Positions 12,130 through 43,478 of a DNA stretch of 64,000 bases are shown piece by piece (position 1 is the first letter of the stretch; each line of letters opens with the position of its first letter). Below the pieces are notes generated by a model, which was given only the letters and a program-made list of their open reading frames with translations, ran no database searches and was not told the origin of the DNA. Source of the stretch: Candidatus Latescibacterota bacterium (lineage in GTDB: Bacteria; Latescibacterota; UBA2968; UBA8231); assembly GCA_965215195.1 (NCBI GenBank), contig CBDCDC010000002.1, positions 1,632,001-1,696,000 on the forward strand. The letters run 5' to 3'. The position numbers were made by a program, and so were the translations under genes.

Positions 12130-13062
12130 TCAGAAACTCCTCGGTGGTACAGCTTCTGTGTATAAAGAGGCTTTCAAACGCCCCCAAGACCTCGACTCCA
12201 CAGCCGTCCCTTGAAAAGTACCCTCTAGCGGCATCAGGATCAAGTCAGTGAAGCGATCGGAAAAGCGATACGAGTTGTGTTGGCCCGAAAGCGACCACTT
12301 AGCATCAAAAAGCTCTGAATGCGCATCAAGATCGTTGAACTCTACATTAAAACCAAGGATTTCACCTTCCCGCAAGAGGTGCTCTTCGCTTTGAAAGACC
12401 GCATTGATATCGACGTGGTCAAAAGGCAGAAGCATGACTTCGTAGTTCGTCACTCCCTCTCCTCCCAAGATGCCTATAAACTCAACTGCCGCCCTAGTAT
12501 AGGGACCATCGGATAGCGCGTACCAAGCGGCGGCGGAAAAATTGACGAAGAAATCTTCGTCAGGCGACGGGCCAGCCAGAACGAAGTGATTGGCTTCAGA
12601 TCCGTTGCGTCGCCTCTGCTCTTCGTGGCTCAACTCGGTGAAATTGGCGAATTGTCCCCCTGAGTGGTCCGCGTCGATAAATAATTCCATCGCATCGTCT
12701 TGGAAAAGCACCGTAGCACTACCGGCAGGACGATCGATCTGATGTATATCATCGCGAACCAGAGCAGCGATGTAGAGCCTGTTCATCGCTTTATTCCACC
12801 CTACCATGAGACGGGCGGAAAAATCGCCCGAATCGCTCGCCTTAACTTTTGGACTAATCAGGTCGTGAAATTGACCCGTTAATATAGCGTAGGAGTCGCC
12901 TACAACCTCCCAATCTCTCAAATCTCCATCAATGGTGGGAACCAAGTGATCGGGAAATTGAAAGGCTCTATAGGCCACTCCTTCGGGGTAATGACCCAGA
13001 ACCGATTTAGTCGAGCCTACTATTATCTGTAGCACCAGCCCTAAAAAAATAAACGCGACCAT
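12130..13062 (-). CDS. Exported CBM9/DOMON-like protein with a C-terminal TAVE..SWGR.K motif
   Basis: Signal-like N-terminus, PTIDGDLRDW, LYIAALVRDD, DAMELFID, GEILGFNV, TAVESRSWGRLK. Confidence 0.7.
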   Translation of the reverse strand: MVAFIFLGLVLQIIVGSTKSVLGHYPEGVAYRAFQFPDHLVPTIDGDLRDWEVVGDSYAILTGQFHDLISPKVKASDSGDFSARLMVGWNKAMNRLYIAALVRDDIHQIDRPAGSATVLFQDDAMELFIDADHSGGQFANFTELSHEEQRRRNGSEANHFVLAGPSPDEDFFVNFSAAAWYALSDGPYTRAAVEFIGILGGEGVTNYEVMLLPFDHVDINAVFQSEEHLLREGEILGFNVEFNDLDAHSELFDAKWSLSGQHNSYRFSDRFTDLILMPLEGTFQGTAVESRSWGRLKASLYTEAVPPRSF

Positions 13063-13124
13063 AGAACCTCGGCCAACGCCCTCTCATCCGTTTTTTGATG
13101 TCTTTCAATCTATTATCGGGCTGT

Positions 13125-13153
13125 ATGATAATCAATGGTCTAAGACGTGTCAA
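13125..13153 (-). promoter_or_regulatory. Sigma70-type promoter for module A
   Basis: Minus strand TTGACA-17 nt-TATCAT in the AT-rich divergent intergenic region. Confidence 0.7.
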
Positions 13154-13347
13154 GATATATTAGAGACCGCCGTGAAAACAATGGACCTATAACGGATAAA
13201 ACCAATAAATAACAATACGTTAGGGTTATTCAACCCTCGTACAACTCTTTGCAAATCACCTCATCCGTGCCTCGACTGCACTGATTATCTAAGCGATTGA
13301 CGACAAAGGCCCCTTCTTTTCGTACTCGTCGGCCCGATCTGACTATC

Positions 13348-13376
13348 TTGAGATGCTCATCAATATACTATATACT
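13348..13376 (+). promoter_or_regulatory. Sigma70-type promoter for the gene at 13507
   Basis: TTGAGA-17 nt-TATACT. Confidence 0.6.
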
Positions 13377-13506
13377 ATAGAATAGCAAAACCTCACGTGC
13401 TTAGCCCGGCTGGTGCGGGCTGAGATAGAGTGAGCAACTGCCGTCGGCGTCTTTGTTATGCTCGTCGCAGGCAATCAAGGCCTACATTCTTGTGCGGAGG
13501 TATTCG

Positions 13507-16161
13507 ATGATCAGGCTATTGGTAGCGGTACTCGGCATCGCGTTTGTGTCCAGTGACGGCTATACCGAAATCAAGCGGTGGCGGATCGGCGACGATGTGC
13601 ATCCCTGGACCCTGCGGCCGGTCACCGGTCGCCTCGACTTGGGCCGTAGCTGGGCTGTCGAACTGATCGCCGACGACGATGGCGACGGACTCATCGACGA
13701 AGACCCGGTCGAGCTAGTCGACAACGATGACGACGGCCAGCTCAACGAAGATCCCGTGGACCCGCAAGTCGACAATGACGGCGACGGCCAGCTCAACGAA
13801 GACCCAGCCAACGGAAGCGATGACGACCAAGATGGACTCATCGACGAAGACCCACCGGAATTTTTTGACAACGATCTCGACGGGCTCATCGACGAGGACG
13901 GGCCGGATCCTCAGTTCGACAATGACGGCGATGGGCGGCTCAACGAGGACGGGTTGTACACTCCCTTTGATGACGATTGGGACGGCCAGCTCAACGAGGA
14001 CCCGGCTAATACTCTCGACGACGACGGCGACGGACTTATCGACGAGGATCCACCATTGCCCGAGCACGGCCAAGGCGTCACCACTTGGCTTCGGCCGGTA
14101 CGTCTCGACAGCCTGCGCAACCTCGCCTATTTGCTCAACCAGCGCTTCAAGGCCGGCGAGTTCGGCGGCATCATCCCCGGCAAGGATTCCCAGCGCCCCT
14201 TTATGGTGGTGCCGAGCGAATACGGCTTCCGCCGCGAGGTCGCCGACCCCATCTCGGCCGACTACTGGGCGGTCGCGGGGGTGATTGACCGCAAAGAGGC
14301 CGAAAAGGCCGTCGATGGCAATCTGAGGACAGACTTTACTTCCACCAAGTATGGCCGCGGCGGGATTGCCGTCAACCTGATGGGCTACTACTATATCAAC
14401 CGCATCGTCTTTCGCCCACAGCCAACCTTGCCCGGCGGTACCATCGCCAACTACTACATCCGCTACGGCGACCAGACCTCCATTAACAGGCTCTCTGAGA
14501 CCATCCAAGCGAACCGGACACTAGTTCAAGCCGTCCGAGGCCAATTCAACCCAGTGATCAAAGACCTCCGATTTGCCCCCCCCTTTATCGCTGGCCGCAT
14601 CGACGTGTACTCAATTGATAAAGAGGGGAAACTCAGCCAGACCGCCGAAGCTGGCTACTTCGGCGATGGTTATGCCATCGACGGGCGGTACACTTCGGCC
14701 ATCATCGACGTGGGCACACCTACCCCGCGCATCCGTCGTTACGACCGCGAGATTGAGCAGTTCGCCGGCTCGCAGCGAGATGCTTATGAAAGCCAGTTTC
14801 CCCTCAATGTTGCCGGCGACCGAGTCAACTGGGGCAAGGTGCGCTGGCGCGGGCGCCGGGACAGCCGCGACGGCGATGTCCGCATCCAGTTCCGCGTTGG
14901 CAACTCCCTCGATACCCACATCTACGCCCGCCGCTTGGGCCCGGGCCTCTCGGACACCCAAGACGAAAACGGCAATCCTCTCGACCTGTTTTCCTGGATC
15001 AAGCTTCCCGAAGGCCGCGTTCCCGAGCGCGAGCTTCAGTACAATGAGCTAGGTGTTGATCTAGGTGACGACGGCCCCTTGGGCTGGAGCTTCTGGTCGG
15101 CACCTTTCAAGCTCGAAGACGCCCTCATCGACGAGAGCTTGCCTGAATCCGAGTGGCGCAACGCCGGCGTCCAACTACCCCTACCTGGAGGGACTCGCTA
15201 CATCCAGTTCCGCATTTTTTTCGACTCCACCCAACATAGTGCGGCCTTGTTGGACTTCATCGAGTTCGACTACGACGCGCCGCTAGTCTCGGGTGGGATC
15301 GTCGCCGAAATTTTTCCCCCGTATGCCTCATTAGGCGAGGAGACTTCGTTCCGCTACTTCGTCCGGCCATTCTTCAACCAAAGCGAAGCCACCTCTTTCA
15401 ACCGGATCGAAATCGCCGTGCCCAGCACCGACACGCGCATCGACACCTTGCGCTTCGATGGCCAAGACTGGGCCGAAATTGCCGCCGGGACCGCCGCCGA
15501 CCTCCTGCGCGATGTCCATCCCATCCGCCTCGCCCCGGCAGAGGGTCGCTCCGACAGCCTAGGGCAATTCGCGCAGAGCCTGACTTCTGACCCGCTCACT
15601 GGCTCGTCTAAGCTACACCTCAAGTTGCCCGCAATGGGCGCGGAGCATTTCCGACTCGGCGAGACCATCGAAATCGTCTTTCGTTCCAAGATCTTCCGCG
15701 GCTCTGAGGAGTTCACCAGCACGGTGTGGAACGACCAGATCGACAAGGGCGTCGAATTTATCCCCCAGCCGACCGAAGATGGAGACGCCACCCCCGACAT
15801 AGCCACCAACGCCCGCCTCGTGGTCGCCGACGAGATCAATCAACTCATCGAGTCCCCCCATATCGCTCCCAATCCCTTTACCCCCAACGGCGATGGCATC
15901 AACGACGAGGTGACCTTTTTCTTCGATCTTGTCCGCCTCCTAGAGTCGGTCAATGTTCAAGTCAACATCTATGACCTGTCCGGCCGCCCCATTGCCCAGA
16001 TACACACCGGCGGCTCGTACGCGAGCAATGTCCAAATTAAGTGGGACGGCCGCGAAAGCCACGGCCAACTCGCGTCGCCAGGGATCTATCTCTACCGGCT
16101 CGTCGCAGACTCGGACGCTACCTCCACGGCATATACGGGAGCTCTATCGCTGGTCTATTGA
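13507..16161 (+). CDS. Large exported protein with acidic DxDxDG..[DN]ED repeats and a CHU_C/FlgD-type C-terminal domain
   Basis: GGAGG RBS, ATG at 13507 and a signal peptide. Eight D-x-D-x-D-G-x-[IL]-[DN]-E-D repeats. C-terminus PNPFTPNGDGINDE...IYDLSGR...WDGR...PGIYLYRL...SLVY. Confidence 0.85.
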   Translation: MIRLLVAVLGIAFVSSDGYTEIKRWRIGDDVHPWTLRPVTGRLDLGRSWAVELIADDDGDGLIDEDPVELVDNDDDGQLNEDPVDPQVDNDGDGQLNEDPANGSDDDQDGLIDEDPPEFFDNDLDGLIDEDGPDPQFDNDGDGRLNEDGLYTPFDDDWDGQLNEDPANTLDDDGDGLIDEDPPLPEHGQGVTTWLRPVRLDSLRNLAYLLNQRFKAGEFGGIIPGKDSQRPFMVVPSEYGFRREVADPISADYWAVAGVIDRKEAEKAVDGNLRTDFTSTKYGRGGIAVNLMGYYYINRIVFRPQPTLPGGTIANYYIRYGDQTSINRLSETIQANRTLVQAVRGQFNPVIKDLRFAPPFIAGRIDVYSIDKEGKLSQTAEAGYFGDGYAIDGRYTSAIIDVGTPTPRIRRYDREIEQFAGSQRDAYESQFPLNVAGDRVNWGKVRWRGRRDSRDGDVRIQFRVGNSLDTHIYARRLGPGLSDTQDENGNPLDLFSWIKLPEGRVPERELQYNELGVDLGDDGPLGWSFWSAPFKLEDALIDESLPESEWRNAGVQLPLPGGTRYIQFRIFFDSTQHSAALLDFIEFDYDAPLVSGGIVAEIFPPYASLGEETSFRYFVRPFFNQSEATSFNRIEIAVPSTDTRIDTLRFDGQDWAEIAAGTAADLLRDVHPIRLAPAEGRSDSLGQFAQSLTSDPLTGSSKLHLKLPAMGAEHFRLGETIEIVFRSKIFRGSEEFTSTVWNDQIDKGVEFIPQPTEDGDATPDIATNARLVVADEINQLIESPHIAPNPFTPNGDGINDEVTFFFDLVRLLESVNVQVNIYDLSGRPIAQIHTGGSYASNVQIKWDGRESHGQLASPGIYLYRLVADSDATSTAYTGALSLVY
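13672..14052 (+). repeat. Eight degenerate in-frame repeats encoding probable Ca2+-binding loops
   Basis: DDDGDGLIDEDP / DNDDDGQLNEDP / DNDGDGQLNEDP / DDDQDGLIDEDP / DNDLDGLIDEDG / DNDGDGRLNEDG / DDDWDGQLNEDP / DDDGDGLIDEDP. Confidence 0.85.
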
Positions 16162-25078: not shown

Positions 25079-26746
25079 TTAAGGAGCGGCTGCGTAGCGG
25101 AAGAGCGCTTCTTCCCTGATTTGCACCTGATCGGCCTCTGCCCGGCGCAGCGAGTCGAGGAAGGCATTGAAGAGCACCCCTTCTCGGCGCTTGCGAATAT
25201 CCGCGCGAATGGGCCGCTGCACCTGCTTAAAGGGCAGCAACGCCATCTCGTAGGGCTGGTCGAGGCGGAACACGCTGTATTTCTCTTGAACTTCCATCGG
25301 GCCTTGTAGCACGCCGACGTCTTTGGAATTGCTGTCGCCAAAGAAGGTGCGGTACGGCGACTGGTAAAGCGACTCAATGGTGACCCGACCGCTGTCGGCA
25401 AAAGTGTGGCCGCCCACTGGCTTCATGCTGGGCCGCACCGAATGGCGAATGGCCAACTCCTCTAGCCGTTCCCCGCTGCGCACCCGCGCGAGAATTTCTT
25501 CGGCCTCCGTGCGCGTATCGACCAGCACCTCGGTCATCTCGATGACGCCGGGCAGGGATTTGTAGGTATCGAGGTATTTTTCGTAATAGGCTCTAACTTC
25601 GGCGTCCGTCACTTCGACCCTGCCCTCTACCTCGTCCAGACGCAATTGGGATGCGAGGAGCTTCTGGAGCTTTTTCTCTTTCCACTCCACTATGTCGGCC
25701 CGCTGATGCCGCCCCTGAGCGCGGGCTTCGAGGGCCAGCAGCGAATCGGGAAGAATCCACAACTCGAGCACATGGCAGACCGCTGCGCTGTCGGGCGGCA
25801 GCGCACCCTTTTCCACGGCGAGCAGTCCCTGCACGAAGTCGCCCACCTTGATCGCGCTGCCTCTGTATTCGATCAGCGGTGCCTGCGCTTGCGCTTGGTC
25901 CAATCCACGGCCGTGCAACCCATCAAGCACGGCGCGGATGCGATCGCGGTGATAGCGCAACTCGTGCGCCTTCTTGAGCGAATCAATGACCGCTTCGCGC
26001 CGACTCCTCCACTTGCGCTGGCTCAACTGTTTGGCGATATCGGTGCGCAACTGCTCAAAGGGAATGCGCTGCTTCTTGAGGACCTTGACCACCTCATAGC
26101 CGTCGATGGTGCGGATCGGCTCGCTGATTTGGCCTTCCTCCAAGTGGAAGGTGCCATCGCGCAGGCTGGACACGGCACCAGATTGGCCGAAGAAGGCACC
26201 GAGATTGCCGCCTTTGTCTGCGTCGTCAGCTAGGGAACGCTCTCGTGCCAATTCGGAGAAGCTAGCCCCTGCATTTAGCAGGCGGATGATTTCGCGGGCG
26301 TCTTCTTCGCGGGCGGAGAGGATGTGCGCCGGCCAGATTTCCCAACCCAGCGATTGCTCCTCATAGGACGCCCGAAGTTCCTCTTCGGTAATTGTGAGTT
26401 GGGCATCGACTATTTCGCGAGACAACTCCTCAGATAGGCGCTTATTGACCATCTTGGAGAGCTTGTGTTTCAGATCGGGTAGCTGCTCCAGCCCCCGCTT
26501 CCTAGACTCGCGCAGCACGAGCTCCTTATCTACCAAGCTCTGCAAATGGGCGCGATGGGCAGCCACGCCCTCTTTCTTTGAGCGCAGATAGTCGGGCAAC
26601 TCCTGCTCGTAGCGGTCGAGGTCTAGGACCGTGATTGCCTTCTCAGCGACCGTGGCCAGGACCGTCTCAGGAGTGGCCGGTCCACTTTCCGGCTCGCAGC
26701 CCGCAACCGCTAAAAGGAGGCCACAAACAAAAAATCGCCAAAACAT
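25079..26746 (-). CDS. Peptidyl-prolyl cis-trans isomerase (SurA/PrsA-like, two PpiC-type domains), lipoprotein
   Basis: Lipobox VAGC, AHIL, GASFSELARERS.AD...GGNLG, GQISEPIRT..GYEVVKV, then a second rotamase-like domain. Start placed at ATG 26746. Confidence 0.85.
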   Translation of the reverse strand: MFWRFFVCGLLLAVAGCEPESGPATPETVLATVAEKAITVLDLDRYEQELPDYLRSKKEGVAAHRAHLQSLVDKELVLRESRKRGLEQLPDLKHKLSKMVNKRLSEELSREIVDAQLTITEEELRASYEEQSLGWEIWPAHILSAREEDAREIIRLLNAGASFSELARERSLADDADKGGNLGAFFGQSGAVSSLRDGTFHLEEGQISEPIRTIDGYEVVKVLKKQRIPFEQLRTDIAKQLSQRKWRSRREAVIDSLKKAHELRYHRDRIRAVLDGLHGRGLDQAQAQAPLIEYRGSAIKVGDFVQGLLAVEKGALPPDSAAVCHVLELWILPDSLLALEARAQGRHQRADIVEWKEKKLQKLLASQLRLDEVEGRVEVTDAEVRAYYEKYLDTYKSLPGVIEMTEVLVDTRTEAEEILARVRSGERLEELAIRHSVRPSMKPVGGHTFADSGRVTIESLYQSPYRTFFGDSNSKDVGVLQGPMEVQEKYSVFRLDQPYEMALLPFKQVQRPIRADIRKRREGVLFNAFLDSLRRAEADQVQIREEALFRYAAAP

Positions 26747-26838
26747 AACGTTATCACCTGTGTACAAAACTGCGCGGTCCCGCTTGCCCAGCGGCACCGC
26801 GCAGCTAGTTGAAATTGGCTTGTGAACCCTGCGCTGCG

Positions 26839-27597: not shown

Positions 27598-27607
27598 GGG
27601 TGACCTC

Positions 27608-30358
27608 CTACTCGAGACCGGCGAACACGGTGATGAACATAGCCGTTTCAGTGTGTGCCTTTTCGACCGAGGCGCGATCGATCCGCGACACGCGGAACCC
27701 AGTCTGGGTCCATAAGTTGTAGCCTAGGTATTCGGCGTTGTTGGTAAACTGCAAGGCATAAACCATCTCGTTGCGATCCGAGCGCAGCAAATGGGTTTCC
27801 AACTCCTTGCGGAACTGCTCAACGAGCAGGTACTCTAGGCCGGTCTGCAATTCGGTGCGCGACAGGATGGGTACGCGCAGGACCAAAGACCAGAGCTCGC
27901 GCAATTCCGTAGTTGCCACCCGCACCTGGGTGGCCTCGCGGCGCGAAGGACGCTGGCGCTGGAACTCGCTCTTCCAGCGCGGCTGGAACTTGATGACTCC
28001 GAGATCGAACGTGTAATCGACCTTATTGAGGATGCCAAAGAAGGAAGCCGTCTCGCGGATGTCCTGCTCCTCAATGGGCCGCTCGTCGAAATTGGATTGC
28101 TTGAATACCTCCCACTTGAAGCGATTCTTGAAGTGGATGTGGTCACTTTGGTACTGATAGCCTAAGTACAGGGTATTGGCCCAACCATCGCGTAGGGGTA
28201 GAGGATCAGCATAGGGTACGTCGTCGCCGCGTGATCCCTCGAATACAACCCACTCAATCACATCGTCGCGAATATCGTCCTGGACTTTACGGTAGTTATT
28301 GTATACTTGCACACGCCCCTTGCTGGCGTAGTCCTTGTCAAAGGTAAGCAAAGCGTAATTAGTGACGTTCTCGCGGGCGTCGGCTAGCTGTCGTTCGTCG
28401 AGGCGACCGACGGTTAGCCGCGCCTCCGGCCCCAAATGGGATCCCACGTAGATATTGTACCCGCGCCGATCCCGTTTGTACAAGTAGTCGGGCTGTTCGT
28501 CGTTTTCGAAGCGGTCAACGATGCCATTGTTGTTCATATCGACGCCGAAGAGGAACTCGGGTCGATCGGATGCATACCGCAAGAACGGCTCCTCGTAATC
28601 GGGAACTGTATTCTCGCGCCAATCATTGTCATTTTGGTTGAAGTCGTTGATGAAGTCGTTGTTCTCGTCAAAACCGGGGAAGACCCGGAGGTCCTGCGAG
28701 AAATTGGCGCGCAGCCAGTCGGGATTGCGGTCTTGATCGTCATTATCGTCGACGAATTCGTAAACGAAACGTCTTTCGTCGTCGTAGTCGATATCGGCCG
28801 CGTCGTTTAGGGTGCCGGCTAAAAAGGTGCTGGTGCTGTAGCTGGGATCAACGCTATAGACCTCGCCGAAGCTGTAGTAGGGATACGCTCGCTTATAGGC
28901 ATTGATAAACCAAGCGTCGGCCGAGATATTGTGGGCTTGGTGATTGGTCACATCAATCTCGGACCGCCGCGGGTAGCGAAAGTGCTGTCGGTTCCGATCG
29001 TATTCACCCGCAAGATAAAATCCGCTGACGTCGGAAACGTCGAGGGTGACGCCGAAAATCTCATTGGCTACCGGCAACCCGTATTTGACGCGCACGAAGC
29101 CTTGGTTTGAGCCATCCTTCACATTGCCGTCAGCACGTACCGTGCGCTCGGGGATACCCTCGGAGAGCAAGACTGGCTGAAAGTTGCGGTTAGCTTGGCG
29201 GTTGGAGGTGACGTCGATCCGGTAATCGTTGGCCAAGAGCAACAGGAACTCAATGCTCTTAATCTGTTCGGGCCGGGGGCCGAAGGAATTGCGGTACTGA
29301 GGACCCTCGAGGTCGTACACTAGCACAATGATTTCGTTGCCATCGGCCGAGAGGAATCCCTCGCGGCGGAAACCACCCTGTACCGACGGGCTGAAGTCGA
29401 GGACATTGCTATCACCAATTTGGCGACGATTACTGATGCGCTCGCCATCGATGGTCGTAATGATCATCTCCTCCTGGAAGAAGGCCGTGCCGGCGATGTT
29501 ATCCTCGGGTGAATCGTCGCTCAAGCGCACTTCAATACGCGTAATGTCGGCGTTGTTCTGGCCCTCGGTAAGCGTACCTTTGAAGGGGTTGCCCTGGAAT
29601 GCCTGCCCCTTGGTCGAGGAGTTGAAAGCATTGACGTAGGTCGCGCCAACCTTGACAAAGTCGCCGACCTGCATGGTGCCGCGACCACCGATCAAGTTGG
29701 TGTCGTTCGAGCGGAAACGAGCAGTGCTGGCCGTCTCTAAGGTTTCGACTTGCCCAGGCGAGCTGGGACGCGACACGAGAAGAGTCGTCTCGTACTTGTC
29801 GGTGGCCAAGTCGAACTGAATACCGGCGAACGTCGGTTTGGAAAAAGTCATCGGCGTCAGCGTCGTGCGGATGCGATCGCCAATGGTCAGGGCATAGGCA
29901 TATTGGCCCTTCTGGTCAGAGGCAATAACCACGCTTGCAAACCAAGAAGAGAATCTGTCCGTCTTGAACAGGCTGCTACCCGAGGTTTGTGGTGCCGCGA
30001 CGCTCCAATCGTAAACGAGTTGGCCGCGGGTGATGTAATTCCCGTAGAGGTCGTAGAAATACGTGCCCTCTTGGTTGGTATTCACAAAGCGCTCATAATG
30101 TCGACGAGCGTAATTGGTATAGTCCTGTTGTCGCCACTGGTACTCGTTGAAGAGTTCCTGGGGCACGTACCACTTCTTCACCGCCGGATCCAGCGCGTCA
30201 AAGAGGACGCCAGGCCCCACAGGGTCGTAATATACTTCTCCACCGCGGCGCACACCCAAGCGCGAACCGAAGTCCTCCTGTGCTAGGAGATGCTCTACCA
30301 CCACTCCCAGCATCAGCAACACAACCGCACCGATGCGGCAACTCCTAGCTGTGTTCAC
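27608..30358 (-). CDS. Large hypothetical exported protein, probable outer-membrane beta-barrel with acidic loops
   Basis: Signal peptide, many alternating amphipathic strands, terminal strand MFITVFAGLE, and loops DDNDDQD and DMNNNGIVD. Confidence 0.65.
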   Translation of the reverse strand: MNTARSCRIGAVVLLMLGVVVEHLLAQEDFGSRLGVRRGGEVYYDPVGPGVLFDALDPAVKKWYVPQELFNEYQWRQQDYTNYARRHYERFVNTNQEGTYFYDLYGNYITRGQLVYDWSVAAPQTSGSSLFKTDRFSSWFASVVIASDQKGQYAYALTIGDRIRTTLTPMTFSKPTFAGIQFDLATDKYETTLLVSRPSSPGQVETLETASTARFRSNDTNLIGGRGTMQVGDFVKVGATYVNAFNSSTKGQAFQGNPFKGTLTEGQNNADITRIEVRLSDDSPEDNIAGTAFFQEEMIITTIDGERISNRRQIGDSNVLDFSPSVQGGFRREGFLSADGNEIIVLVYDLEGPQYRNSFGPRPEQIKSIEFLLLLANDYRIDVTSNRQANRNFQPVLLSEGIPERTVRADGNVKDGSNQGFVRVKYGLPVANEIFGVTLDVSDVSGFYLAGEYDRNRQHFRYPRRSEIDVTNHQAHNISADAWFINAYKRAYPYYSFGEVYSVDPSYSTSTFLAGTLNDAADIDYDDERRFVYEFVDDNDDQDRNPDWLRANFSQDLRVFPGFDENNDFINDFNQNDNDWRENTVPDYEEPFLRYASDRPEFLFGVDMNNNGIVDRFENDEQPDYLYKRDRRGYNIYVGSHLGPEARLTVGRLDERQLADARENVTNYALLTFDKDYASKGRVQVYNNYRKVQDDIRDDVIEWVVFEGSRGDDVPYADPLPLRDGWANTLYLGYQYQSDHIHFKNRFKWEVFKQSNFDERPIEEQDIRETASFFGILNKVDYTFDLGVIKFQPRWKSEFQRQRPSRREATQVRVATTELRELWSLVLRVPILSRTELQTGLEYLLVEQFRKELETHLLRSDRNEMVYALQFTNNAEYLGYNLWTQTGFRVSRIDRASVEKAHTETAMFITVFAGLE

Positions 30359-30411
30359 AAAAGCCCTCCCTCGTTTATCAAATTTCCGGTCTGAGTTGCA
30401 ACGTATTCCAA

Positions 30412-33400
30412 TCAGTAGGCAACGTGGACGAGGCGCACGAGTTGGTTATCCTTGTCGTCGGCCTCAACCTCAATCCGGCAGAGATAGATCCCCGGCGACA
30501 CGACCTGTCCATCCAAATCCCGCCCGTTCCAGATGAACGTCTGATCTCCCACTTTGCCGCTCCCCGTCGCACCCTGTCCCCGGCCGACCAATCGACCACT
30601 CAGATCGTAAAATGCCACCCCCAACGGCCGCTCTTCCAATACCTTCAACAGCGCGAAATGCACCAAAAGCTCATCGTTGATCCCGTCGCCGTTGGGCGTA
30701 AAGATCGGTGTCAGCACTACGTCTTGGATCAACGAACCTAGCAAGGCCATCAGACTGACCCGCGTCGTCGAGGAGTCCACCAACTCAGTGGCGTCCTCGG
30801 CGTCGGTATCGACCCGCTGGAAGACGCCCTCATCGGAGTCTGACGCACGAACAAAGGAGGTGAACTCAATGCCCTCGCGGAAGCTCTGCGAATCGAACTG
30901 TATCTCGATGAGAGCGTGCGCCTCAGCGGGCAAGTCGGCGTTGAGCGAGAAGGGAAAGCGGACCCAGATGGAGTCCTCTGCCGTCGCTATGCGCTCCAGT
31001 ACCGAGCCATCCTCGGTACGCAAGATTCCGTCATCACCCTCGGTAAAGGCGCGGTCGAAGCGCGTGGTTACCGCTGAGGTTCGCATTTGATCTGGGTTGA
31101 TGAGCGAGGGTGTCTGGTTGACCTCAACCCGGCCGAGGCGGATTCCGGTCAGACGCACGGCGCGCGGAGTGACGACCAGCACCTCATTGAAGCCATCGCG
31201 CACGGTGGCATCGGTGGGGTCGGGTGCGGCAGCGCGGATAAAATAAGAAAATCGCTGAGGTTTGAGCGGATTGATATCGCGCGGCGGAGTGTAGTCGGCC
31301 GGCAAAACATCTAAGTTGGTCAGCCTCTTTGTCGTCCCCTCGTCGCTTACCAGCGCCAACTCACCAGCCAACTCCAGTGCCAGCGGCGGTGCGAGCTCAA
31401 TGCGCAACTCGCGGATTCGCGCCGTCTTGAAGGGATTCTCAGAGGAGATATTGACCCGGACCTGGATGAATTTGCGCGGATTGGGTGAGGTGATCGTCGC
31501 CTCATTGACGCCGTTAGTAGGCAGATAGCTCTCGCTCCATGCGCTCCAGCCGACGAAGGCCAACTCGCCATCCTTAGCAAAGCTCGTACGCGGTGCTCGG
31601 CGCAATTTCTTGCCATCTTCGTCGATGAGTCCGTCGCCGTCATTGTCGATGAGGTCAATGGGATCTTCATCGTTGGCACCGTCACCATCGTCGTCCTTGC
31701 GCGAAGCGTGTCTCTTGTTGTCGGGCAGAGTCTGCCAGATCTCCCATGCCAACCACTCCAAGGCTATCTCGTTGTAAACACTTTCTGATACTTCCTCTCG
31801 CTCTTCGCTGCCAGCGATGCTGACGACCTGATAGTAAGTAAAATTGGTGTCCGTCTGATCGGAGGTGCGGGTCTGTACCTGCAAGCGGACATCCGGGTGA
31901 AGATCCAGCGGCTCAATCCGCTCAATAGACTCACCAGTGAGCGGATCGGTGTCGCGGATGAGGACGTCCCCCTCCCAAGCGATGCTCGGCAGGGTCTTGC
32001 GGATGAAGTTGCCGCGCGAATCGGTCAGGGAGATAGGTGGCGAGTACGCCCACACGCTCACCGGATACCCTTCGCCGTAGAGCTGGATCTCGGCCATGGT
32101 CGCCAACGCACCATAGCGGCCCGACTGATGCCCGGTGACGTCGATATCGCGGACCTGTAGGAAGCGGATCTTGCGAGGGGCAAAAGCCTCTTGGAAAATG
32201 CGCACTACTGGCGTGTGGTTGTCGATATGCTCCTCGCTAATGATGTTGTCCCATTTGATCCCCTCTTCGAGCTGGGGGAAATCGTTGCGGTCTTTCATGC
32301 TCAAGGGTTTGAGCAGCGTACCGTCGGAGACTAAGATGCCCGGCCCCAAGAAGGCACCCAAGTGGCTCTGGTTGATGCGCTTGTTGACCACCGAAAGATT
32401 ATCGACCCAGAACACGGCTCCTAAATCGTACCAAGCTGTGCCCTTGACGTAAACTGGCGACCAAGTATTGGCAGTCCACTGCGAGTCGTACAACCCGTCG
32501 GTGGCCAACTCGGGAGCACCCAAGCCACCGTGTTCAAACGAGGCACCACCGCGCTTTTCGGGCTGCAGTGAGTAGTTGTCGCCCTTAGCCCAGACTCGGA
32601 CCTCGGAGATGCGGGGAACCTCCTTGACATAGTAGAGGATTGGCCCGCGCTTTTCTTCGGGGAGGGTTTGGTATTTTTCGCGGGCGGTCTGGTTGGCATC
32701 GTCTTGGAGCTCGACGAGCAAACCGCCGGCTGTCTGGCGCTGATAGACAAGCGCACCACGCTGCTCCTCGGGTAGTGCTTCATAAGCAAGGTGCGCCTCT
32801 TCACCGGCCCCTAGAAAGGAATCGCGCCAGAGATCCGAATCTGTAATTTTGACGCGGACATACTGGATGAAGGCTCCACCAATATCGGGCAGACCGTCCA
32901 AGTCCCAGTCGGCCCGATCCAGCGGCGAAAGAGGGAAGGTCATCTGTACGTAGCGCCCCCCGGTCCCGGGGACCGAAACCAGAGTCACTTCACCAGTCTC
33001 AACTCCCCCACCCCCTGCACAGCGGGTCTCACCGGCAAAACCCACACTTTCGTCGCGCACACACTGAGCCAACTTGCCGGCGACGAATCCAGTCAAGACT
33101 TCTTCTACGAGTGTGAACTGGAGATTGTTGCCCAAGGGAAAAGGAAAACGCTCGCCCATTGAGGCGAAGAGTGCTAATGCCTTGACCGGTTGGCCGAGGA
33201 ATCTGTCTTCGAACTGACCGGCAGGAAAGATGATCGTCAAGCTATCGGCGAAAACTAGCCTCCCTAGGTCTATTTCAAGCTCCCAATTGCTGAGTCCGTC
33301 GAGATTGAAGTCGCCGGGATCGCTCAAGCGGCTTGCAAAGCTGACCGGCGTATCCGGCTCCCAGAATGTGCTCAAGTCGTTGTCGAGAATATTGTTGGCC

Positions 33401-33747
33401 AAGGGGTCGTTGGATTTGGCGGTCGCGCCGCCAGTAGTTAGCGCACCGGCAGCGCGGACTAAGTCGGGATAGGTGAAGTCTCTAGCTGTGGGGCCGACAT
33501 TGATATTGCGGCGGAAAAACACCGGTCGCAGCCCGTCGGTCCCAACTTGGAAGATATCCGTTTCCCTGAGCGGTACGTTCAAGCTCGTGACCAGATCGTT
33601 CTGATATATCCAATTTCCCCAGAGAGAAGCCCGATCCACGAGGATCGCATTTCCTTGGAGGCGATAGGCATCGCTGTTCTGGGCCAGACAAAAATTCGGC
33701 ATAGATACTACGACGAGGGGAATTCCCCACTTTAGCAGCCGCTTCAT
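30412..33747 (-). CDS. Large exported protein with discoidin-like segments and a CHU_C/FlgD-type C-terminal domain
   Basis: Signal peptide, DNDLSTFW...IDLG, DGLYDSQW...DLG, two DDGDG..DED repeats, and FTPNGDGINDE...YDLSGR...WNGRD...PGIYLCR...VAY. Confidence 0.85.
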   Translation of the reverse strand: MKRLLKWGIPLVVVSMPNFCLAQNSDAYRLQGNAILVDRASLWGNWIYQNDLVTSLNVPLRETDIFQVGTDGLRPVFFRRNINVGPTARDFTYPDLVRAAGALTTGGATAKSNDPLANNILDNDLSTFWEPDTPVSFASRLSDPGDFNLDGLSNWELEIDLGRLVFADSLTIIFPAGQFEDRFLGQPVKALALFASMGERFPFPLGNNLQFTLVEEVLTGFVAGKLAQCVRDESVGFAGETRCAGGGGVETGEVTLVSVPGTGGRYVQMTFPLSPLDRADWDLDGLPDIGGAFIQYVRVKITDSDLWRDSFLGAGEEAHLAYEALPEEQRGALVYQRQTAGGLLVELQDDANQTAREKYQTLPEEKRGPILYYVKEVPRISEVRVWAKGDNYSLQPEKRGGASFEHGGLGAPELATDGLYDSQWTANTWSPVYVKGTAWYDLGAVFWVDNLSVVNKRINQSHLGAFLGPGILVSDGTLLKPLSMKDRNDFPQLEEGIKWDNIISEEHIDNHTPVVRIFQEAFAPRKIRFLQVRDIDVTGHQSGRYGALATMAEIQLYGEGYPVSVWAYSPPISLTDSRGNFIRKTLPSIAWEGDVLIRDTDPLTGESIERIEPLDLHPDVRLQVQTRTSDQTDTNFTYYQVVSIAGSEEREEVSESVYNEIALEWLAWEIWQTLPDNKRHASRKDDDGDGANDEDPIDLIDNDGDGLIDEDGKKLRRAPRTSFAKDGELAFVGWSAWSESYLPTNGVNEATITSPNPRKFIQVRVNISSENPFKTARIRELRIELAPPLALELAGELALVSDEGTTKRLTNLDVLPADYTPPRDINPLKPQRFSYFIRAAAPDPTDATVRDGFNEVLVVTPRAVRLTGIRLGRVEVNQTPSLINPDQMRTSAVTTRFDRAFTEGDDGILRTEDGSVLERIATAEDSIWVRFPFSLNADLPAEAHALIEIQFDSQSFREGIEFTSFVRASDSDEGVFQRVDTDAEDATELVDSSTTRVSLMALLGSLIQDVVLTPIFTPNGDGINDELLVHFALLKVLEERPLGVAFYDLSGRLVGRGQGATGSGKVGDQTFIWNGRDLDGQVVSPGIYLCRIEVEADDKDNQLVRLVHVAY

Positions 33748-33782
33748 AGCAAACCCTCTCTTTCAGTGCTTTCCTCCTAAGG

Positions 33783-36266
33783 CTAATACGCTACAGAAAC
33801 GATGCGCGTTTGGGCATCGCCCGCATCATCGGCTTCGGCCGAAATGCGCAATACGTAGAGGCCCGGCGGTACGCTCTGTCCGCCATCAGCGCGGCCATCC
33901 CACTGTTGCGAATACCCTCCCGACGACAGATAGCGCTCAATAAGACGCAAGCGCCGACCGTTCAAATCGAATATCTCCAGACGCACCGGTTTCGGCGTCA
34001 ACAGGCGCTGTACATCGAAGAGCACGGTCATCTCGTCGTTGACGCCGTCGCCATTGGGGGTAAAAGGATTGGGCGCGGCCTTAAAATTGCTCACCAGATT
34101 CTCGCTCTGGGCCGAAACATCGGCGATAACAGCTAGAGAGTTGCGATCTGAGAGCTGGTCCGTCGCTACGAAGTCCACCACATCGTTGCCCTCCACCCCC
34201 TGCGGCAGAAAGAAAGCCAGCGTATCGAGTGTACCCTCACCGTCTGCGACCGCTAGAATCCCGTTGCGGGTAAAGCGCCGTTCCACATCGGCATCCAAGG
34301 TATCGAGGAAGGCATTGGCGGAGAAGTTAGTGTGGAAATTAATAACCCGGCCTCGGAAGCGGACTTTCATCAACGCATCACGCACTTGTCCGTCCTCGGC
34401 TGGGCCAATGGTCGAAAAACCAACGACGAACTGGTTATCGGCGATGTACAATTCTTGAAATTGCCCTTCTCCAGCCTCGCCTTCGCCGAGCCCGACGCGA
34501 GAGAGAACCTGGACTTGGCCATCGCCCAGATCCACTTCCATCCCCTCAATCTCCTCAGTGTGTGCCGGCGTAAAAACCTGTAGGCGATTAAAGCCGTTGT
34601 TCTCGGGCCCTATGGAAGCTTTCAAGACCAGTACGAAAGAGGTATCGCGGCCGGCGATTACATCTACTGCCGGGGCGATCTCGCCGAGAACTTGATCGGC
34701 GATCTGGGGGGCGGAGTATTCAACGCGCATGTTGCGAATAACTGTCGCCGACTCCGGCGACTGGCTCAGGAACTCTACCTCAACTTGGATAAAGGGCCGC
34801 CCGCTCGGCGCATTGATCAGTTCGCCATTGTCGGCTGTTTGTGCACTGCTCCAGAACTCAAGATCGGGTTCGATGCGGCGCCGGACGCTGACCGGCAATC
34901 CTATATAGTCCTCACGGGTCAAGCGGATCGACTGGCGATCCTCGGGCAGGGCGGCACTGAAGACCTCGCGGGCCTCTATGTTGAATTCCGAGGAGTCCAA
35001 ATGTACTGCTTGGCCTTGAGTCGAGGAACCGAGCCGTCGGTCGATGAGAACTGCCCCCTCTTTCCACTCAACTTCGCGGTCATAGTAGTTGACGCGGAAT
35101 AGCACATCGGGCTCGGCAGTGAATCCTGTCCGCATGCGTACGATCGCTCTCGACTTGGTGGGATCGCCGATTTTTTCTTCATCCCAGAAGATCCTCCCCA
35201 GAGTCGCTGGGGGCAGCGGTAGCGCCTTGGAGGTATATACCGCTTCGGGCATGAAACCGTCAGCGAAAAACTCCATTTCAGCCAAATCGTAGTCCAGCGG
35301 AGTCTGAAAATCGAAGCGCGCGTAGCGCATTTCGGCGAGCGGGTCGAACACTACTGCAATAGTATCTTCCACGTTGACTGGCACACTCGCTTCGGGAACG
35401 AAGGTCGGAAACGTCTCTCCTATCTTGTCGAATCTAGGGAAGCCTAATGGCCCCGTGATCGGATCTTCAAGACTGAGGCCGGCGATCACTGTCTCGGTCC
35501 CAAGCAGACCGCGAAAGAGAGTGTAGGCGGAAACGCGCACTGGCTCTTCGAGGCTGGGATAGAGGCGAAAAAGCCGAATTGGAAAGTAGTGGCCCAAGTC
35601 AATATAGAGGATCCATTGCTGCGTGACGTCTTCCCCCAACCGATCGATGCGTTCAAAATGGGTCAATGGTTCGCCATCGAAGACGCGCCCCAAGCCCTCC
35701 TGCAACCGTATGCCGGTCAAGGCTCTTTCAAATCTACCGAGGGCCGTGAGGTTCAAGCTCTTGTTATACTTATTGCCTCCGGGCGGACGGGGGAAAGACT
35801 CAGCCACGTTGATCATGGCCTCGATCTCGGTGATGCCGGCCCGGCGCAATAATTGGATGGCTTCCAAGCTGCGCGGGAAAGGGCTCCAGCGAGGAATCAG
35901 CACCGTGCCTTCCTCGACGATTATACCATCTTCGCGTTCCGCATCGGTCAGGGACACCACATCGGTCCTAGTCACATTGAGCGAAAAGGCGAAGAGGATA
36001 GAGTCAATCGCCGCATCTACTTCGTCGGAAGTTAAGGCGAGGGAAATTTCGGGAACGGGCACTATGCGCACGGGCGCGATGGGGCCAATGCCGTTCTCAT
36101 AATTTTCGAGATCTACTAGTTCAATAAAGGTATTCTCTGAGACCGACCCCTGTTTGACGTCGCCCCAAGTGGAATTGCCAGGAATGGATAACAAGCGCAA
36201 CTCCGCGGCAGCGTTCACCACCCAACCCGACAAAACTAGCACAGCGACACAAATCCCTATTCTCAT
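33783..36266 (-). CDS. Large exported protein with a CHU_C/FlgD-type C-terminal domain (paralog family)
   Basis: Signal peptide, FDGEPLTHF...IDLG, and PNPFTPNGDGVNDE...FDLNGR...WDGR...PGLYVLR...VAY. Confidence 0.85.
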   Translation of the reverse strand: MRIGICVAVLVLSGWVVNAAAELRLLSIPGNSTWGDVKQGSVSENTFIELVDLENYENGIGPIAPVRIVPVPEISLALTSDEVDAAIDSILFAFSLNVTRTDVVSLTDAEREDGIIVEEGTVLIPRWSPFPRSLEAIQLLRRAGITEIEAMINVAESFPRPPGGNKYNKSLNLTALGRFERALTGIRLQEGLGRVFDGEPLTHFERIDRLGEDVTQQWILYIDLGHYFPIRLFRLYPSLEEPVRVSAYTLFRGLLGTETVIAGLSLEDPITGPLGFPRFDKIGETFPTFVPEASVPVNVEDTIAVVFDPLAEMRYARFDFQTPLDYDLAEMEFFADGFMPEAVYTSKALPLPPATLGRIFWDEEKIGDPTKSRAIVRMRTGFTAEPDVLFRVNYYDREVEWKEGAVLIDRRLGSSTQGQAVHLDSSEFNIEAREVFSAALPEDRQSIRLTREDYIGLPVSVRRRIEPDLEFWSSAQTADNGELINAPSGRPFIQVEVEFLSQSPESATVIRNMRVEYSAPQIADQVLGEIAPAVDVIAGRDTSFVLVLKASIGPENNGFNRLQVFTPAHTEEIEGMEVDLGDGQVQVLSRVGLGEGEAGEGQFQELYIADNQFVVGFSTIGPAEDGQVRDALMKVRFRGRVINFHTNFSANAFLDTLDADVERRFTRNGILAVADGEGTLDTLAFFLPQGVEGNDVVDFVATDQLSDRNSLAVIADVSAQSENLVSNFKAAPNPFTPNGDGVNDEMTVLFDVQRLLTPKPVRLEIFDLNGRRLRLIERYLSSGGYSQQWDGRADGGQSVPPGLYVLRISAEADDAGDAQTRIVSVAY

Positions 36267-36406
36267 TCCGTTACTCCTCTCCTCGGTAGAGTTTGCGCTC
36301 TCGCCCAGGTTGGCATAGGCATTGGGAACGAGCTGTTAGGCGATACAAGCAGCTATAGCTAGAGAAAAATGATAGATAAGTGACAATATAAGTAACAATT
36401 TTAAGC

Positions 36407-36442
36407 GCAAAGAGAGGGAGGATGCTTCCCCCCTCTCTTTGC
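36407..36442 (-). terminator. Hairpin downstream of the CBM9-like gene
   Basis: gcaaagagagggagga...tccccCctctctttgc, a near-perfect stem just after the stop at 36477. Confidence 0.65.
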
Positions 36443-36476
36443 TTTGCACAGGTCAAACAACAGGATGTTCGATCGC

Positions 36477-37379
36477 CTACTCGCTCAGCGAGGCCTTGAT
36501 GCGACCCCAAGAGTCTTCTTCGACCGCCGTACCGATATCGCCACCGGCACCTACCAAGCGAGCATCGACAAAGCGCTCGGCAAAGCGCCAAGTTGCGGCC
36601 TGACCAGATATGGTGTGGAAGGCGCGATCTTGGCCCGGAGCCTGATCCGTATCCGGCGTCGAAATTTGGTAACCAATGATCTTACCTTCGAAGAGAGACG
36701 ACGCAACGCTGTCGTCGGGGCTATTCCAGATCAGATCGTCGAAAGGCGTACAGAAAAATTCGATGATGCTGACCGTTGGTCCGTCGCCAATGGAGACGCC
36801 ACCACCATCGGCATAGGGCAGATCGTTGACCCACTCAGAGCCTGCACCAAGGTAGAAGACATGGCGACCCGAGGGGTCGTCCGCGACAGCGATGTACTGC
36901 TGCGCCGTGCGGTTGTTGTTCAGTTTCTTCTCTTCGTCGGTCCAGTCGGGGTTGGCCGAACCAGTGTAGTCGCCCCCAGTGTGGTCGCCATCGAGCATGA
37001 CTTCAATCGCCTCGTAATTCCAAGGGCTGCTGCCGTCGTACTCTCTGCCGAAATACACGTTATCGATGCGCTCCATGGCGAACCAGATCGTGCCTTGGCT
37101 GGCGTTCCAACCCGACCAGATGCGATAGTCGAGGTCCGCCGGGTCGTACTGTGCACCGTCGCCCACTGTGGGATCTTGGTATAGATCAGTGGGGAGAAAC
37201 TGGGGATCACCGACTACATCTTCCCAATCCTCAACGGTGCCATCGGTAAAGTCGAGGTCACCTATATCCTCATCGACCATTTCAAAGAGCAGGTAAACCT
37301 GTTCTCCAATATGCGCATTGGCACCGCTTGTCAGGCCCAGTATCAGACCCATAGCGACAAGGCCATATAGACGTTTCAT
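36477..37379 (-). CDS. Exported CBM9/DOMON-like protein with a C-terminal TAVE..SWGR.K motif, paralog of 12130-13062
   Basis: GGAAGGAG RBS, ATG at 37379, signal peptide ending ANA, DGTVEDW, GWN, EAIEVMLDGDHTGG, SGQ...RF..RF.D, TAVEEDSWGRIK. Confidence 0.8.
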   Translation of the reverse strand: MKRLYGLVAMGLILGLTSGANAHIGEQVYLLFEMVDEDIGDLDFTDGTVEDWEDVVGDPQFLPTDLYQDPTVGDGAQYDPADLDYRIWSGWNASQGTIWFAMERIDNVYFGREYDGSSPWNYEAIEVMLDGDHTGGDYTGSANPDWTDEEKKLNNNRTAQQYIAVADDPSGRHVFYLGAGSEWVNDLPYADGGGVSIGDGPTVSIIEFFCTPFDDLIWNSPDDSVASSLFEGKIIGYQISTPDTDQAPGQDRAFHTISGQAATWRFAERFVDARLVGAGGDIGTAVEEDSWGRIKASLSE

Positions 37380-37396
37380 AAGCTGCGACTCCTTCC

Positions 37397-37681
37397 AATA
37401 TCCCTTATCGGGAGTGTGAGTGTGGTGGTTTAGGGGCAGCGACCTTTTCGGCTCAATCCGCGTCGTAGCACGGGCGGCCATCGCTTATTGCCTCCGTAGG
37501 TCTGTCTTCCCCTCGTAGAAAATTACGCCCACTAGCAATCGACATCCGACCTTTCCTGACTAGTCGGAACCGCTGTAGAGGGCTTTTGTTCGGCGTAATA
37601 TAGAATATCCTCCACTATACCGCAAGTATTTTACATTTTACGCTGGCCTGACTCCTTGGCATACTCCCGATAAGGGATATT
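37397..37681. repeat. Perfect 19-bp inverted repeat pair enclosing a promoter
   Basis: aatatcccttatcgggagt (37397-37415) is the exact reverse complement of actcccgataagggatatt (37663-37681). Confidence 0.85.
37597..37625 (-). promoter_or_regulatory. Sigma70-type promoter for module B
   Basis: Minus strand TTGCGG-17 nt-TATATT in an AT-rich patch. Confidence 0.55.
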
Positions 37682-39347: not shown

Positions 39348-39412
39348 CTTTCCCTCCTTAGTGACGAGCGGTAGAAAACGGACTTAACTGCCTAAGAGCC
39401 AAGTTGAACATC

Positions 39413-41052: not shown

Positions 41053-41058
41053 GTCAGA

Positions 41059-42234: not shown

Positions 42235-42290
42235 GTATTCTCCTTACTGACTGATGTTACGCACGGGTGTCTTGGGTTTGAGATGCTGTC

Positions 42291-42329
42291 CTGCCTAAAG
42301 GCGCGGTGAAGCACCCTGCCTTTAGGCAG
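42291..42329. terminator. Intergenic hairpin
   Basis: ctgcctaaaggc...gcctttaggcag 12-bp stem with inner ggtg/cacc pairing. Confidence 0.6.
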
Positions 42330-42337
42330 ATCGGCCA

Positions 42338-43021
42338 TCAGGCCAACCCGCTGAGTACCCGCAAGCGCTCGCCGAGGTGATCCATCAGTCCGTTGATATT
42401 GGCGAAGGAAGCCGCGTAGAGCGGTTCGTCAACCCGAAAGTACACCCGCGCACCAGGCCGAGCATAGCTATCGTATTCCAAGCCAATGGGAATCAACGGT
42501 ACGCGCATCCCCAACCGCTTTTCGGCCTGTACCAGATGCTCGACCACTCCCTTTTGCAGCGGCCCCAACTCGTCTTGATAGCGCATGCCTTCCGGGTGCG
42601 AGACGACCAATTCCCCGCGCTGGTACAGCCCGTCTAAATAGTCTTGCATCTGCTGGTTGGCCGCGCGGGCTCGCCGAATCTCGGCGCGGCGTTGCTCGCG
42701 GTCTGCGATCCGCCTGATGTCTTTGGGCCTCTCCACTTTGACCCCCCCCATCCACTCCAGTATCCCCCACAGACCAACCTTCATAACGTAGTTGGCATAG
42801 CGCCGAGTGATCCTGTACAGCAAAACTCCTTCGAGCAGAATGTCGCGGTACGCGCAATGCTTGGGCAAAAGCAGGGCCGGCCCCTCGCGCGGCAGATTGC
42901 GACCGCCTTCGACCGCCAAGCGGTGATAGCGCATGGCACCGGCCGCGAGCAAGCGAGCACAGCAGGCGAGGGCATCTACGCGCTTGATGGAAAAGTCTCT
43001 ATGCTCAGGCTCTGCGGACAT
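42338..43021 (-). CDS. 1-acyl-sn-glycerol-3-phosphate acyltransferase (PlsC-like)
   Basis: HxxxxD motif (KHCAYRD), HPEGMR, VPLIPIG. Confidence 0.85.
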   Translation of the reverse strand: MSAEPEHRDFSIKRVDALACCARLLAAGAMRYHRLAVEGGRNLPREGPALLLPKHCAYRDILLEGVLLYRITRRYANYVMKVGLWGILEWMGGVKVERPKDIRRIADREQRRAEIRRARAANQQMQDYLDGLYQRGELVVSHPEGMRYQDELGPLQKGVVEHLVQAEKRLGMRVPLIPIGLEYDSYARPGARVYFRVDEPLYAASFANINGLMDHLGERLRVLSGLA

Positions 43022-43025
43022 GGCC

Positions 43026-43478
43026 CTACCTGAACAAGTCCTTTACCTTGCCCCAAGTGCTTTCGTCCACTTCTGTGGACAAGGGTTGCAGCAGGTCTTG
43101 CCCCGGGCCGGCCAAGTACAAATCGCCTTCGGGATCTATGGCCGCGAAATAATCCCCGTCGGCGTCCAGCCGCGCTTTGATGTACGCGGGCACCTCCGGG
43201 GACTGCGCGGCCATAGCGGCAGACCACAGGGCCAAGCCCTCAACCGCCAGCACTTGTCCGTCGCGGGCAATAGCGACAAACCGCTGCTCGGCATCCTGTG
43301 CGCCCAACTGCCGCCATAGCTGTACGACCCGCTGGCGCTGCGCGGCCCTATCGTGCGAGAAGAGGTAAAATACGCGACTGTCTTCCGGCAGGGCCTTAAT
43401 CTCGCCGCTGCTAATTCCACTCGCTGCGACCAGCAGCAGGACCAAGCCCGTCGTCCATTTCGTCCGTAGTGCGTTCAT
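43026..43478 (-). CDS. Small exported protein ending in TEVDESTWGKVKDLFR
   Basis: Signal peptide from ATG 43478 and a C-terminal [ST]WG.vK motif. Confidence 0.7.
   Translation of the reverse strand: MNALRTKWTTGLVLLLVAASGISSGEIKALPEDSRVFYLFSHDRAAQRQRVVQLWRQLGAQDAEQRFVAIARDGQVLAVEGLALWSAAMAAQSPEVPAYIKARLDADGDYFAAIDPEGDLYLAGPGQDLLQPLSTEVDESTWGKVKDLFR

Follow-up and report, generated by a model that had tools for sequence, protein, structure and literature searches.

The window analysed here is a 64-kb stretch of the genome of a Latescibacterota bacterium (G000; 6.1 Mb, two contigs; family f1 of the phylum sample described below). It carries, on the minus strand, three genes for signal-peptide proteins that end in a common short peptide, here called the tag. 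Tag 1 (T-A-V-E-x-x-S-W-G-R-L-K, 12172..12207) is located near the C terminus of carrier 1, a 310-residue protein of a CBM9-like family (12130..13062; its PF06452 match, at an E value of 1.3e-4, is below the cut-off). Tag 2 (T-A-V-E-x-x-S-W-G-R-I-K, 36495..36530) belongs to carrier 2, a 300-residue protein with a CBM9-like fold (36477..37379; open reading frame (ORF) 36477-37481, with the likely start at 37379), for which structure matches to 7nwn and 1i82 were found at E values of about 1e-9. Tag 3 (T-E-V-D-x-x-T-W-G-K-V-K, 43041..43076), which diverges at the T|A position, ends the 150-residue carrier 3 (43026..43478; ORF 43026-43505, likely start 43478). The first-pass annotation of this window had placed the three peptides correctly, with 13, 5, and 4 residues, respectively, between the Lys and the stop. 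Carrier 3 shows no kinship to carriers 1 and 2, and its thioredoxin-like fold (ESM Atlas score 0.87) is a lead only. The tag was found to be a C-terminal, two-part element that is portable over about 20 unrelated protein groups, and its sequence suggests that it may work like a type IX secretion system (T9SS) attachment signal.

The tag in its genome and in other phyla

In a six-frame scan of G000 with the pattern [ST]WG.[ILVM]K, 54 of 57 matches had a stop no more than 15 residues away, a zone that accounts for 12.4% of all positions; internal positions are not equally common. Reversed sequences gave six matches in all (the paralogues within G000 are not independent of each other). A position-weight scan added a few variants, and 57 of its 58 matches above 25 bits lay within 20 residues of a stop. 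The working set of 61 open frames gives the consensus T-A-V-E-x-x-[ST]-W-G-[RQ]-[IVL]-K-[AS]-x-[FL], with T or S in 58, A or S in 57, and V in 53 of the tags, while W, G, and K are invariant in 101 of 101 aligned tags, a set selected by that very pattern. The 2-21 residues that follow the Lys are mostly polar (mean hydrophobicity 0.03). There is no transmembrane helix in the tag, and it is not PEP-CTERM- or LPXTG-like, as the first-pass annotation had noted. A signal-peptide-like start was recognized by a crude rule in 56 of the 61 carriers, against 1355 of 3329 background ORFs (41%), which supports, on the scale of the genome, the claim that the motif sits on exported proteins. Cargo status is doubtful for three of the 61: a 74-codon fragment (K02), a short CBM9-like piece (K33), and a lipoprotein paralogue without T-A-V (K05).

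Single-linkage clustering sorted the carriers into 21 clusters, namely 37 CBM9-like proteins, among them carriers 1 and 2, four pairs, and 16 singletons. Carrier 3 is one of the singletons, in agreement with the earlier view that the tag is portable. Pfam searches with 20 representatives detected FGE-sulfatase, LTXXQ, PD40, SBP_bac_3, dCache, lipocalin-like, WD40, fasciclin, Temptin_C, HmuY, and a weak CBM9 match, and no family for eight of the 20. All 61 carriers are shorter than 500 residues, with a median of 303 against 705 for the cargo of type-A C-terminal domains (CTDs) of the T9SS. In an AlphaFold2 model of carrier 2, the CBM9-like sandwich stops at residue 254 and the tag forms a separate helix at residues 266-276 (predicted local distance difference test, pLDDT, about 55). 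Because the sandwich ends before this free helix, the tag is predicted to lie outside the CBM9 fold; its presence on FGE-sulfatase, WD40, fasciclin, Cache, HmuY, lipocalin-like, and Temptin_C proteins likewise speaks against a structural part of that fold.

The tag was then followed beyond G000. With one genome taken per GTDB species, the DNA pattern for A-V-E-x-x-[ST]-W-G-x-I-K was detected in at least 114 stretches, and it is C-terminal in 112 of the 114; one of the two exceptions runs off its contig (L118) and the other is a chance match with an internal stop (L128). The matches listed belong to Latescibacterota (some labelled Gemmatimonadota or Handelsmanbacteria), Eisenbacteria, Krumholzibacteriota (Krumholzibacteriia), and Coatesbacteria, and include no Bacteroidota. 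Of 121 metagenome matches to a form with longer spacing, A-V-x-P-x-x-K-L-x-T-T-W-G-x-I-K, 118 are C-terminal, and one such tag stands directly ahead of an intact type-A CTD (L456). Neither Pfam nor NCBIfam holds a model that covers the tag, a point raised in the first-pass annotation; the tag profile gave no match in the PDB at E values up to 10, and no description of the tag was found in the literature searched, which did not include most subscription journals. The tag is not a member of any described class of T9SS CTD. New here are its PorU-type front half, its joint absence with PorU, its exchange for a dockerin-like domain, and the likeness of its back half to a lipoprotein helix.

The neighbourhoods of the carriers differ. 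A type-B-like (PNGDG) CTD protein is encoded divergently from carrier 1 (13453..16161, plus strand). Two more are encoded immediately downstream of carrier 2 (30412..36266, minus strand), which is the first gene of a cassette (25079-37379) that also holds genes for a 916-residue unassigned protein, a lipoprotein-like product, and a peptidyl-prolyl isomerase chaperone. In G000 as a whole, a type-B-like CTD gene is no more than 5 kb away from 28 of the 37 CBM9-like carriers but from only one of the 24 other carriers, compared with 13% at random. Carriers 1 and 2 belong to type-B-like CTD cassettes, and the tag as such does not. The only strict motif match far from a stop is located at approximately 36197-36214, near the N terminus of one of these CTD proteins (ORF 33783-36266). 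Strings of the form S-W-G-x-[IL]-R also occur inside other CTD proteins of the cassettes and are probably a different, structural motif.

Carrier 1 is adjoined by a PorV-family barrel (10409..11347, minus strand; NF033709 at 78.5 bits, cut-off 90), within an operon (4574-13062) that also includes genes for a 1081-residue TPR protein, ExbB/TolQ-like and ExbD/TolR-like proteins, and DUF4159. The first-pass annotation had this barrel as the possible reader of the tag. Its position and the distribution of its close homologues, found in 15 of 28 genomes searched and in none from families f2-f4, which lack tagged proteins as described below, are in favour of that proposal. The same co-occurrence check tells against it: no close homologue (best E value above 1e-17) was found in four tag-rich genomes, G035 (99% complete, 27 tags), G134 (19), G143 (89), and G168 (35). 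In a tree, the barrel forms an isolated long branch together with a near-identical second copy in G000 (C2:634131-635183, branch lengths 0.005) and has no partner from five other genomes, 30 of whose 75 matches were included. It is very improbable that this barrel reads the tag; the lack of homologues in tag-rich genomes rules it out as a general reader, and a local role is possible.

The PorU-type front half and its distribution

T9SS signals are usually regarded as folded beta-sandwich CTDs whose cleavage follows little sequence logic. G000 encodes SprA, one PorU, which is its single C25 gene, and 12 PorV-family matches. Just upstream of the CTD, T[AS][VI] was detected in 60 of 120 type-A-like and in five of 95 type-B-like proteins of this genome, and a stricter four-letter form in 39 of the 120 type-A-like CTDs against 1.8% of control windows. 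The suggestion that the T-A-V-E part corresponds to the linker before T9SS CTDs has thus found its match in the type-A linkers. The PorU cut site has been described as T/E/D/N|G/A/S, and type-B CTDs as probably uncleaved (PMC10202324). At the T|A bond, 50 of the 61 carriers fit [TEDN]|[GAS], V or I comes next in 57, and a cut after the Thr would free 13-32 residues, most often 16. The putative site, a fit of sequence only, falls outside the folded domain in the model of carrier 2. By one and the same rule, T[AS][VI] was found in 34 of 53 type-A CTD linkers of G000 and in none of 22 from five genomes without PorU, the latter drawn from loci belonging to the best 30 of 106 matches.

The tag could also be a functionless stump of truncated CTD proteins, copied within expanding families. 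That 37 of the 61 carriers form one expanded family, and that the WD40 and PD40 carriers have CTD-bearing paralogues, would agree with such an origin. The same register and the same distance from the stop are, however, kept on unrelated folds in several phyla, in both spacing forms, and the type-A CTD linkers of G000 contain neither a W-G motif nor a tag. We regard a stump as hardly credible.

Presence of the tag and PorU was compared in a phylum sample of 140 genomes, each at least 85% complete, from families f1 (63 genomes), f2-f4 (53), and f5-f13 (24), with canonical PorU defined as an NF033707 match above the cut-off. SprA was found in 139 of the 140. Canonical PorU was found in 85, that is, in 61 of 63 f1 genomes (the two misses are fragmented assemblies), all 24 of f5-f13, and none of the 53 of f2-f4. 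The tag profile matched all 63 f1 genomes (2 to at least 63 copies) and 10 of 10 in f5-f9, f11, and f12, and a broader profile with inspection detected real low-copy variants in six of 10 f10 and four of four f13 genomes. Altogether, a tag ends a protein in 83 of the 87 genomes of PorU-bearing families against none of the 53 of f2-f4. Among the 18 f2-f4 matches at E values up to 1, none of the 16 inspected ends a protein-length gene, and the remaining two fall in frames 83 and 47 codons long. A start-less frame of 79 codons in the PorU-less genome G024 (C2:3368249; L157 / L402) ends in a tag-like string, possibly a remnant or a chance match.

For 50 of the 53 f2-f4 genomes there is just a weaker, partial PorU match, and every such frame listed is a paralogue of about 1900 residues or a piece of it. 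No C25 gene other than that of this second protein, which has about 1800-1980 residues, is listed for f2 and f4 genomes, and most of genus g1 lacks it. This paralogue was considered as a second PorU-type protease that reads the tag and is not required, as G000 has one C25 gene and the paralogue is the sole form listed in the tag-less f2 and f4. In the complete f2-f4 genome G030, the PorV, M6-like, Omp85-like, and small-barrel genes of the PorU operon remain, PorU is gone from its place, and PorV falls in the canonical clade (support 97/98). The PorU operon of G000 (C2:1732429-1738339, L325) includes an M6-like FG-GAP CTD protein and a 1033-residue peptidase-MA/PD40 protein, both retained also in genomes without PorU. 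Of 41 genomes beyond the phylum sample that matched the pattern, 37 have a PorU-like gene, 32 of them over the cut-off (two of the 41, G178 and G181, duplicate the assemblies G129 and G127); the remaining four are a chance match and three genomes taken up below. The tag-rich G143 and G168 also have SprA and PorV.

The slot of the tag was found to be filled differently on one cargo. A small Temptin_C-domain protein, several copies of which have a CxxCH motif, bears the tag in G000, in 113 of 120 close homologues, and in the PorU-bearing genomes G051-G054, G135, and G140. The domain is present in 52 of the 53 f2-f4 genomes, and in 11 of 12 f2-f4 loci the protein ends in a dockerin-like domain of duplicated Ca-loop and helix (one ends in neither), which matched PF00404 at E values from 6.5e-7 to 1.6e-4 in the three scanned. 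A profile of this domain, biased by taking 11 of its 12 rows from f2-f4, gave 28 to at least 45 matches per genome in all 53 f2-f4 genomes, 1-32 elsewhere in f1, and four in G000, all on untagged proteins. Tag and dockerin counts are negatively correlated in genus g1 (rho -0.59, n=28). The two elements are not mutually exclusive. Genomes of f2-f4 (G030, G070, G024, and others) have a T9SS with SprA and PorV and no canonical PorU, G030 with 30 PorV-family matches, which suggests cellulosome-like display on a T9SS.

Tag and dockerin-like domain also occur side by side. In f10 (L162-L165; G038, G039, G040, G044), a conserved tagged protein of 210 residues and of no known family follows a giant protein with dockerin-like domain and CTD (2100-2400 residues in two complete copies), and the dockerin-like domain is also found inside CTD-bearing proteins. 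This f10 family is not a universal carrier, being present in 15 of the 140 genomes only.

The lipoprotein-like back half and a proposed mechanism for the tag

The back half of the tag, [ST]-W-G-x-I-K-x-x-[FY], resembles in sequence the terminal helix of an NTF2-like lipoprotein. In G000, two such lipoprotein genes (C2:3231972-3237913, L398) share a conserved cluster with genes for a BNR-repeat CTD protein and for two barrels of the PorV/PorQ family, perhaps the PorZ/PorQ counterpart of these phyla, and the tails of both lipoproteins are degenerate (W-[GA]-x-L-[KR]) and lack T-A-V. Loci of this family encode one paralogue with [ST]-W-G-x-L-R at its end and another that stops short of that tail. 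The modelled tailed form has an NTF2-like domain with its terminal helix at pLDDT 94-96, unlike the free helix on cargo. We infer that the NTF2-like fold may offer a site for the tag helix and that cargo tags could bind to the tail-less paralogue. Members of the family were found in nine of nine genomes of f5-f11, in three of 10 from other phyla, and in none of 16 f2-f4 genomes; the BNR protein is present in two of two PorU-bearing and none of three PorU-less genomes. ESM Atlas clusters of the lipoprotein family belong to Krumholzibacteriota, Latescibacterota, and Eisenbacteria.

With a little more than an even chance, in our estimate, the tag is an address in two parts that directs small exported proteins to the T9SS attachment complex, PorU and its partner barrels, and does without a CTD. 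Tagged cargo would first be exported by Sec. The tag helix would then dock on the attachment machinery, where the simplest partner would be the tail-less paralogue of the lipoprotein and the other candidate is PorU, and the cargo would cross the outer membrane via SprA, alone or with a CTD-bearing partner. PorU would cut at T|A, free about 16 residues, and join the new C terminus to a surface glycan; as an alternative, where PorU has Ser in place of Cys, the tag might be held uncut. In lineages without PorU, dockerin-like domains would do the same job. It is distinctly unlikely that the 16-residue peptide is in itself the complete export-and-anchor signal, mimicking the lipoprotein helix and plugging the empty site of the tail-less paralogue for passage to SprA and a serine-nucleophile PorU, with dockerins where PorU is missing.

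The PorU alignment bears directly on the cleavage step. Where P. gingivalis PorU has its catalytic Cys, the aligned residue is Ser in G037 and in all 13 f1 sequences that could be read, and Cys in the 19 other sequences read; His is kept in the Ser forms too. The sequences come from loci L021 (G000 C2:1739554-1743261) and L238-L277; four of the 41 rows were unreadable, and the reference Cys is residue 688 of the 6ZA2 chain file, taken as C690, the catalytic mutant site of P. gingivalis PorU (PMC5562754). Judging from the alignment, the Ser type could be a serine sortase, a pseudo-enzyme, or a binding-only form. A complex prediction of PorU residues 169-1030 with a 33-residue tail scored 0.00; it was made without controls and is counted neither for nor against binding. 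The GldL/GldM motor model TIGR03517 matched none of five genomes and likewise none of the control genomes, and another motor may drive the T9SS of G000.

Several observations weigh against an attachment address. Ser is found at the PorU active site in the very genomes that hold most tags. Tag 3 of the window has T|E, off the T|A rule, and the conserved f10 carrier has D-V-K in place of A-V-E, usually with no T ahead. As described in PMC11969387 and PMC11285876, the known T9SS signals are all folded beta domains, the shortest of 40-55 residues, and recognition of the CTD requires a folded domain (PMC4804311, PMC11285876). Genomes G145, G146, and G158 carry two, two, and five tags without a PorU match, on first-found contigs of 3-5 kb for which misbinning is suspected, and G050 (f12, 96% complete) has no SprA match, although it carries tags, PorU, and PorV. 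Families f2-f4 may be a single clade and the absence hence one loss, and this co-loss cannot name the reader because the lipoproteins and the BNR protein disappeared along with PorU. The lipoprotein model gave no match in 10 tag-bearing genomes of f12, f13 (three genomes), and other phyla. In the f1 genera other than g1, tag and dockerin counts are positively correlated (rho +0.38, n=35). Finally, some carriers look periplasmic (Spy/CpxP-like, Cache, SBP_bac_3).

Such typically periplasmic folds, together with the predicted free helix and the small size of all carriers, would suit a helix that serves as a peripheral membrane anchor or as a signal for periplasmic retention or turnover, unrelated to export across the outer membrane. 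A membrane-type amphipathic helix is not supported, since the helical hydrophobic moment is about that of shuffled sequences (0.40 against 0.39, and 0.41 against 0.37 in a second analysis); the moment at 170 degrees is higher (0.55 against 0.35). This explanation also leaves the PorU-type linker and the joint absence with PorU unaccounted for, and we consider it quite improbable.

The tag could instead be a purely non-covalent docking peptide, a functional twin of dockerin. It would always stay uncut and attach to a scaffold in the periplasm or at the surface (the NTF2-like lipoprotein or a partner with a CTD), and T-A-V-E would be an inherited linker. The exchange of tag for dockerin on one cargo and the Ser-type PorU in the tag-richest family point in this direction, as do the constancy of W, G, and K beside a T|A bond that varies in f10 and in tag 3, and the longer-spacing tag ahead of an intact type-A CTD. 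The proximity of CBM9-like carriers to type-B-like CTD genes would fit a CTD-bearing scaffold, and the single such case among the other carriers does not. Against it, T-A-V is conserved in most tags and is absent from the CTD linkers where PorU is missing, and we consider docking without cleavage somewhat unlikely.

Relation to known sorting and anchoring systems

If an attachment address is what the tag represents, a further class of T9SS signal, short and linear, would be carried by up to about 1% of the proteins in several uncultured phyla, and thousands of "hypothetical" proteins could be annotated as surface cargo. The 53 PorU-less genomes with dockerin replacement would then be natural knock-outs that separate translocation from attachment.

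LPXTG, PEP-CTERM, and GlyGly-CTERM signals are likewise short C-terminal motifs on unrelated surface proteins, each tied to a processing enzyme (sortase, exosortase, and rhombosortase, respectively). The tag differs from them in having neither transmembrane helix nor basic tail, and no NCBIfam match. In PorU-less families, the dockerin-like domain, as in dockerin-cohesin anchoring (PF00404), takes up the place that the tag has at the C terminus of the Temptin_C cargo. Unlike type I dockerins, which consist of a duplicated Ca-binding loop-helix of about 60 residues, the tag has no Ca-binding loops and no duplication, and no homology is claimed.

Within the T9SS, type-B CTDs (TIGR04131) are described as using signal-specific shuttle barrels, their cognate PorP/SprF proteins (PMC12618676), and the many PorV-family paralogues of G000 recall this arrangement. 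The tag is unlike them in that it is not paired with the adjoining barrel, that the T-A-V linker is rare before type-B-like CTDs of G000, and that no TIGR04131 or PF13585 domain was found on the carriers. A further parallel is the type-A CTD (TIGR04183 / PF18962, with an FlgD-Ig-like PF13860 form in G000). In both cases a Sec signal peptide is combined with a C-terminal signal on unrelated cargo, and the tag shares the T-[AS]-[VI] linker, fits the cut-site rule, and co-occurs with SprA, PorU, and PorV, save in G050, G145, G146, and G158. The type-A CTD is a beta-sandwich of 70-90 residues; the tag is a predicted helix of about 16 residues, in which no motif B, D, or E was seen and which matched no CTD model. 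The short type-A CTDs of Prevotella intermedia are described as the shortest known, with 40-55 residues in three beta-strands, motifs B, D, and E, and modelled binding to PorV (PMC11969387), features that the tag does not have. Their cut-site consensus as given there, PT/GI, parallels [APG]-T|A-V of the tag, and these CTDs illustrate that PorU-processed signals can shrink.

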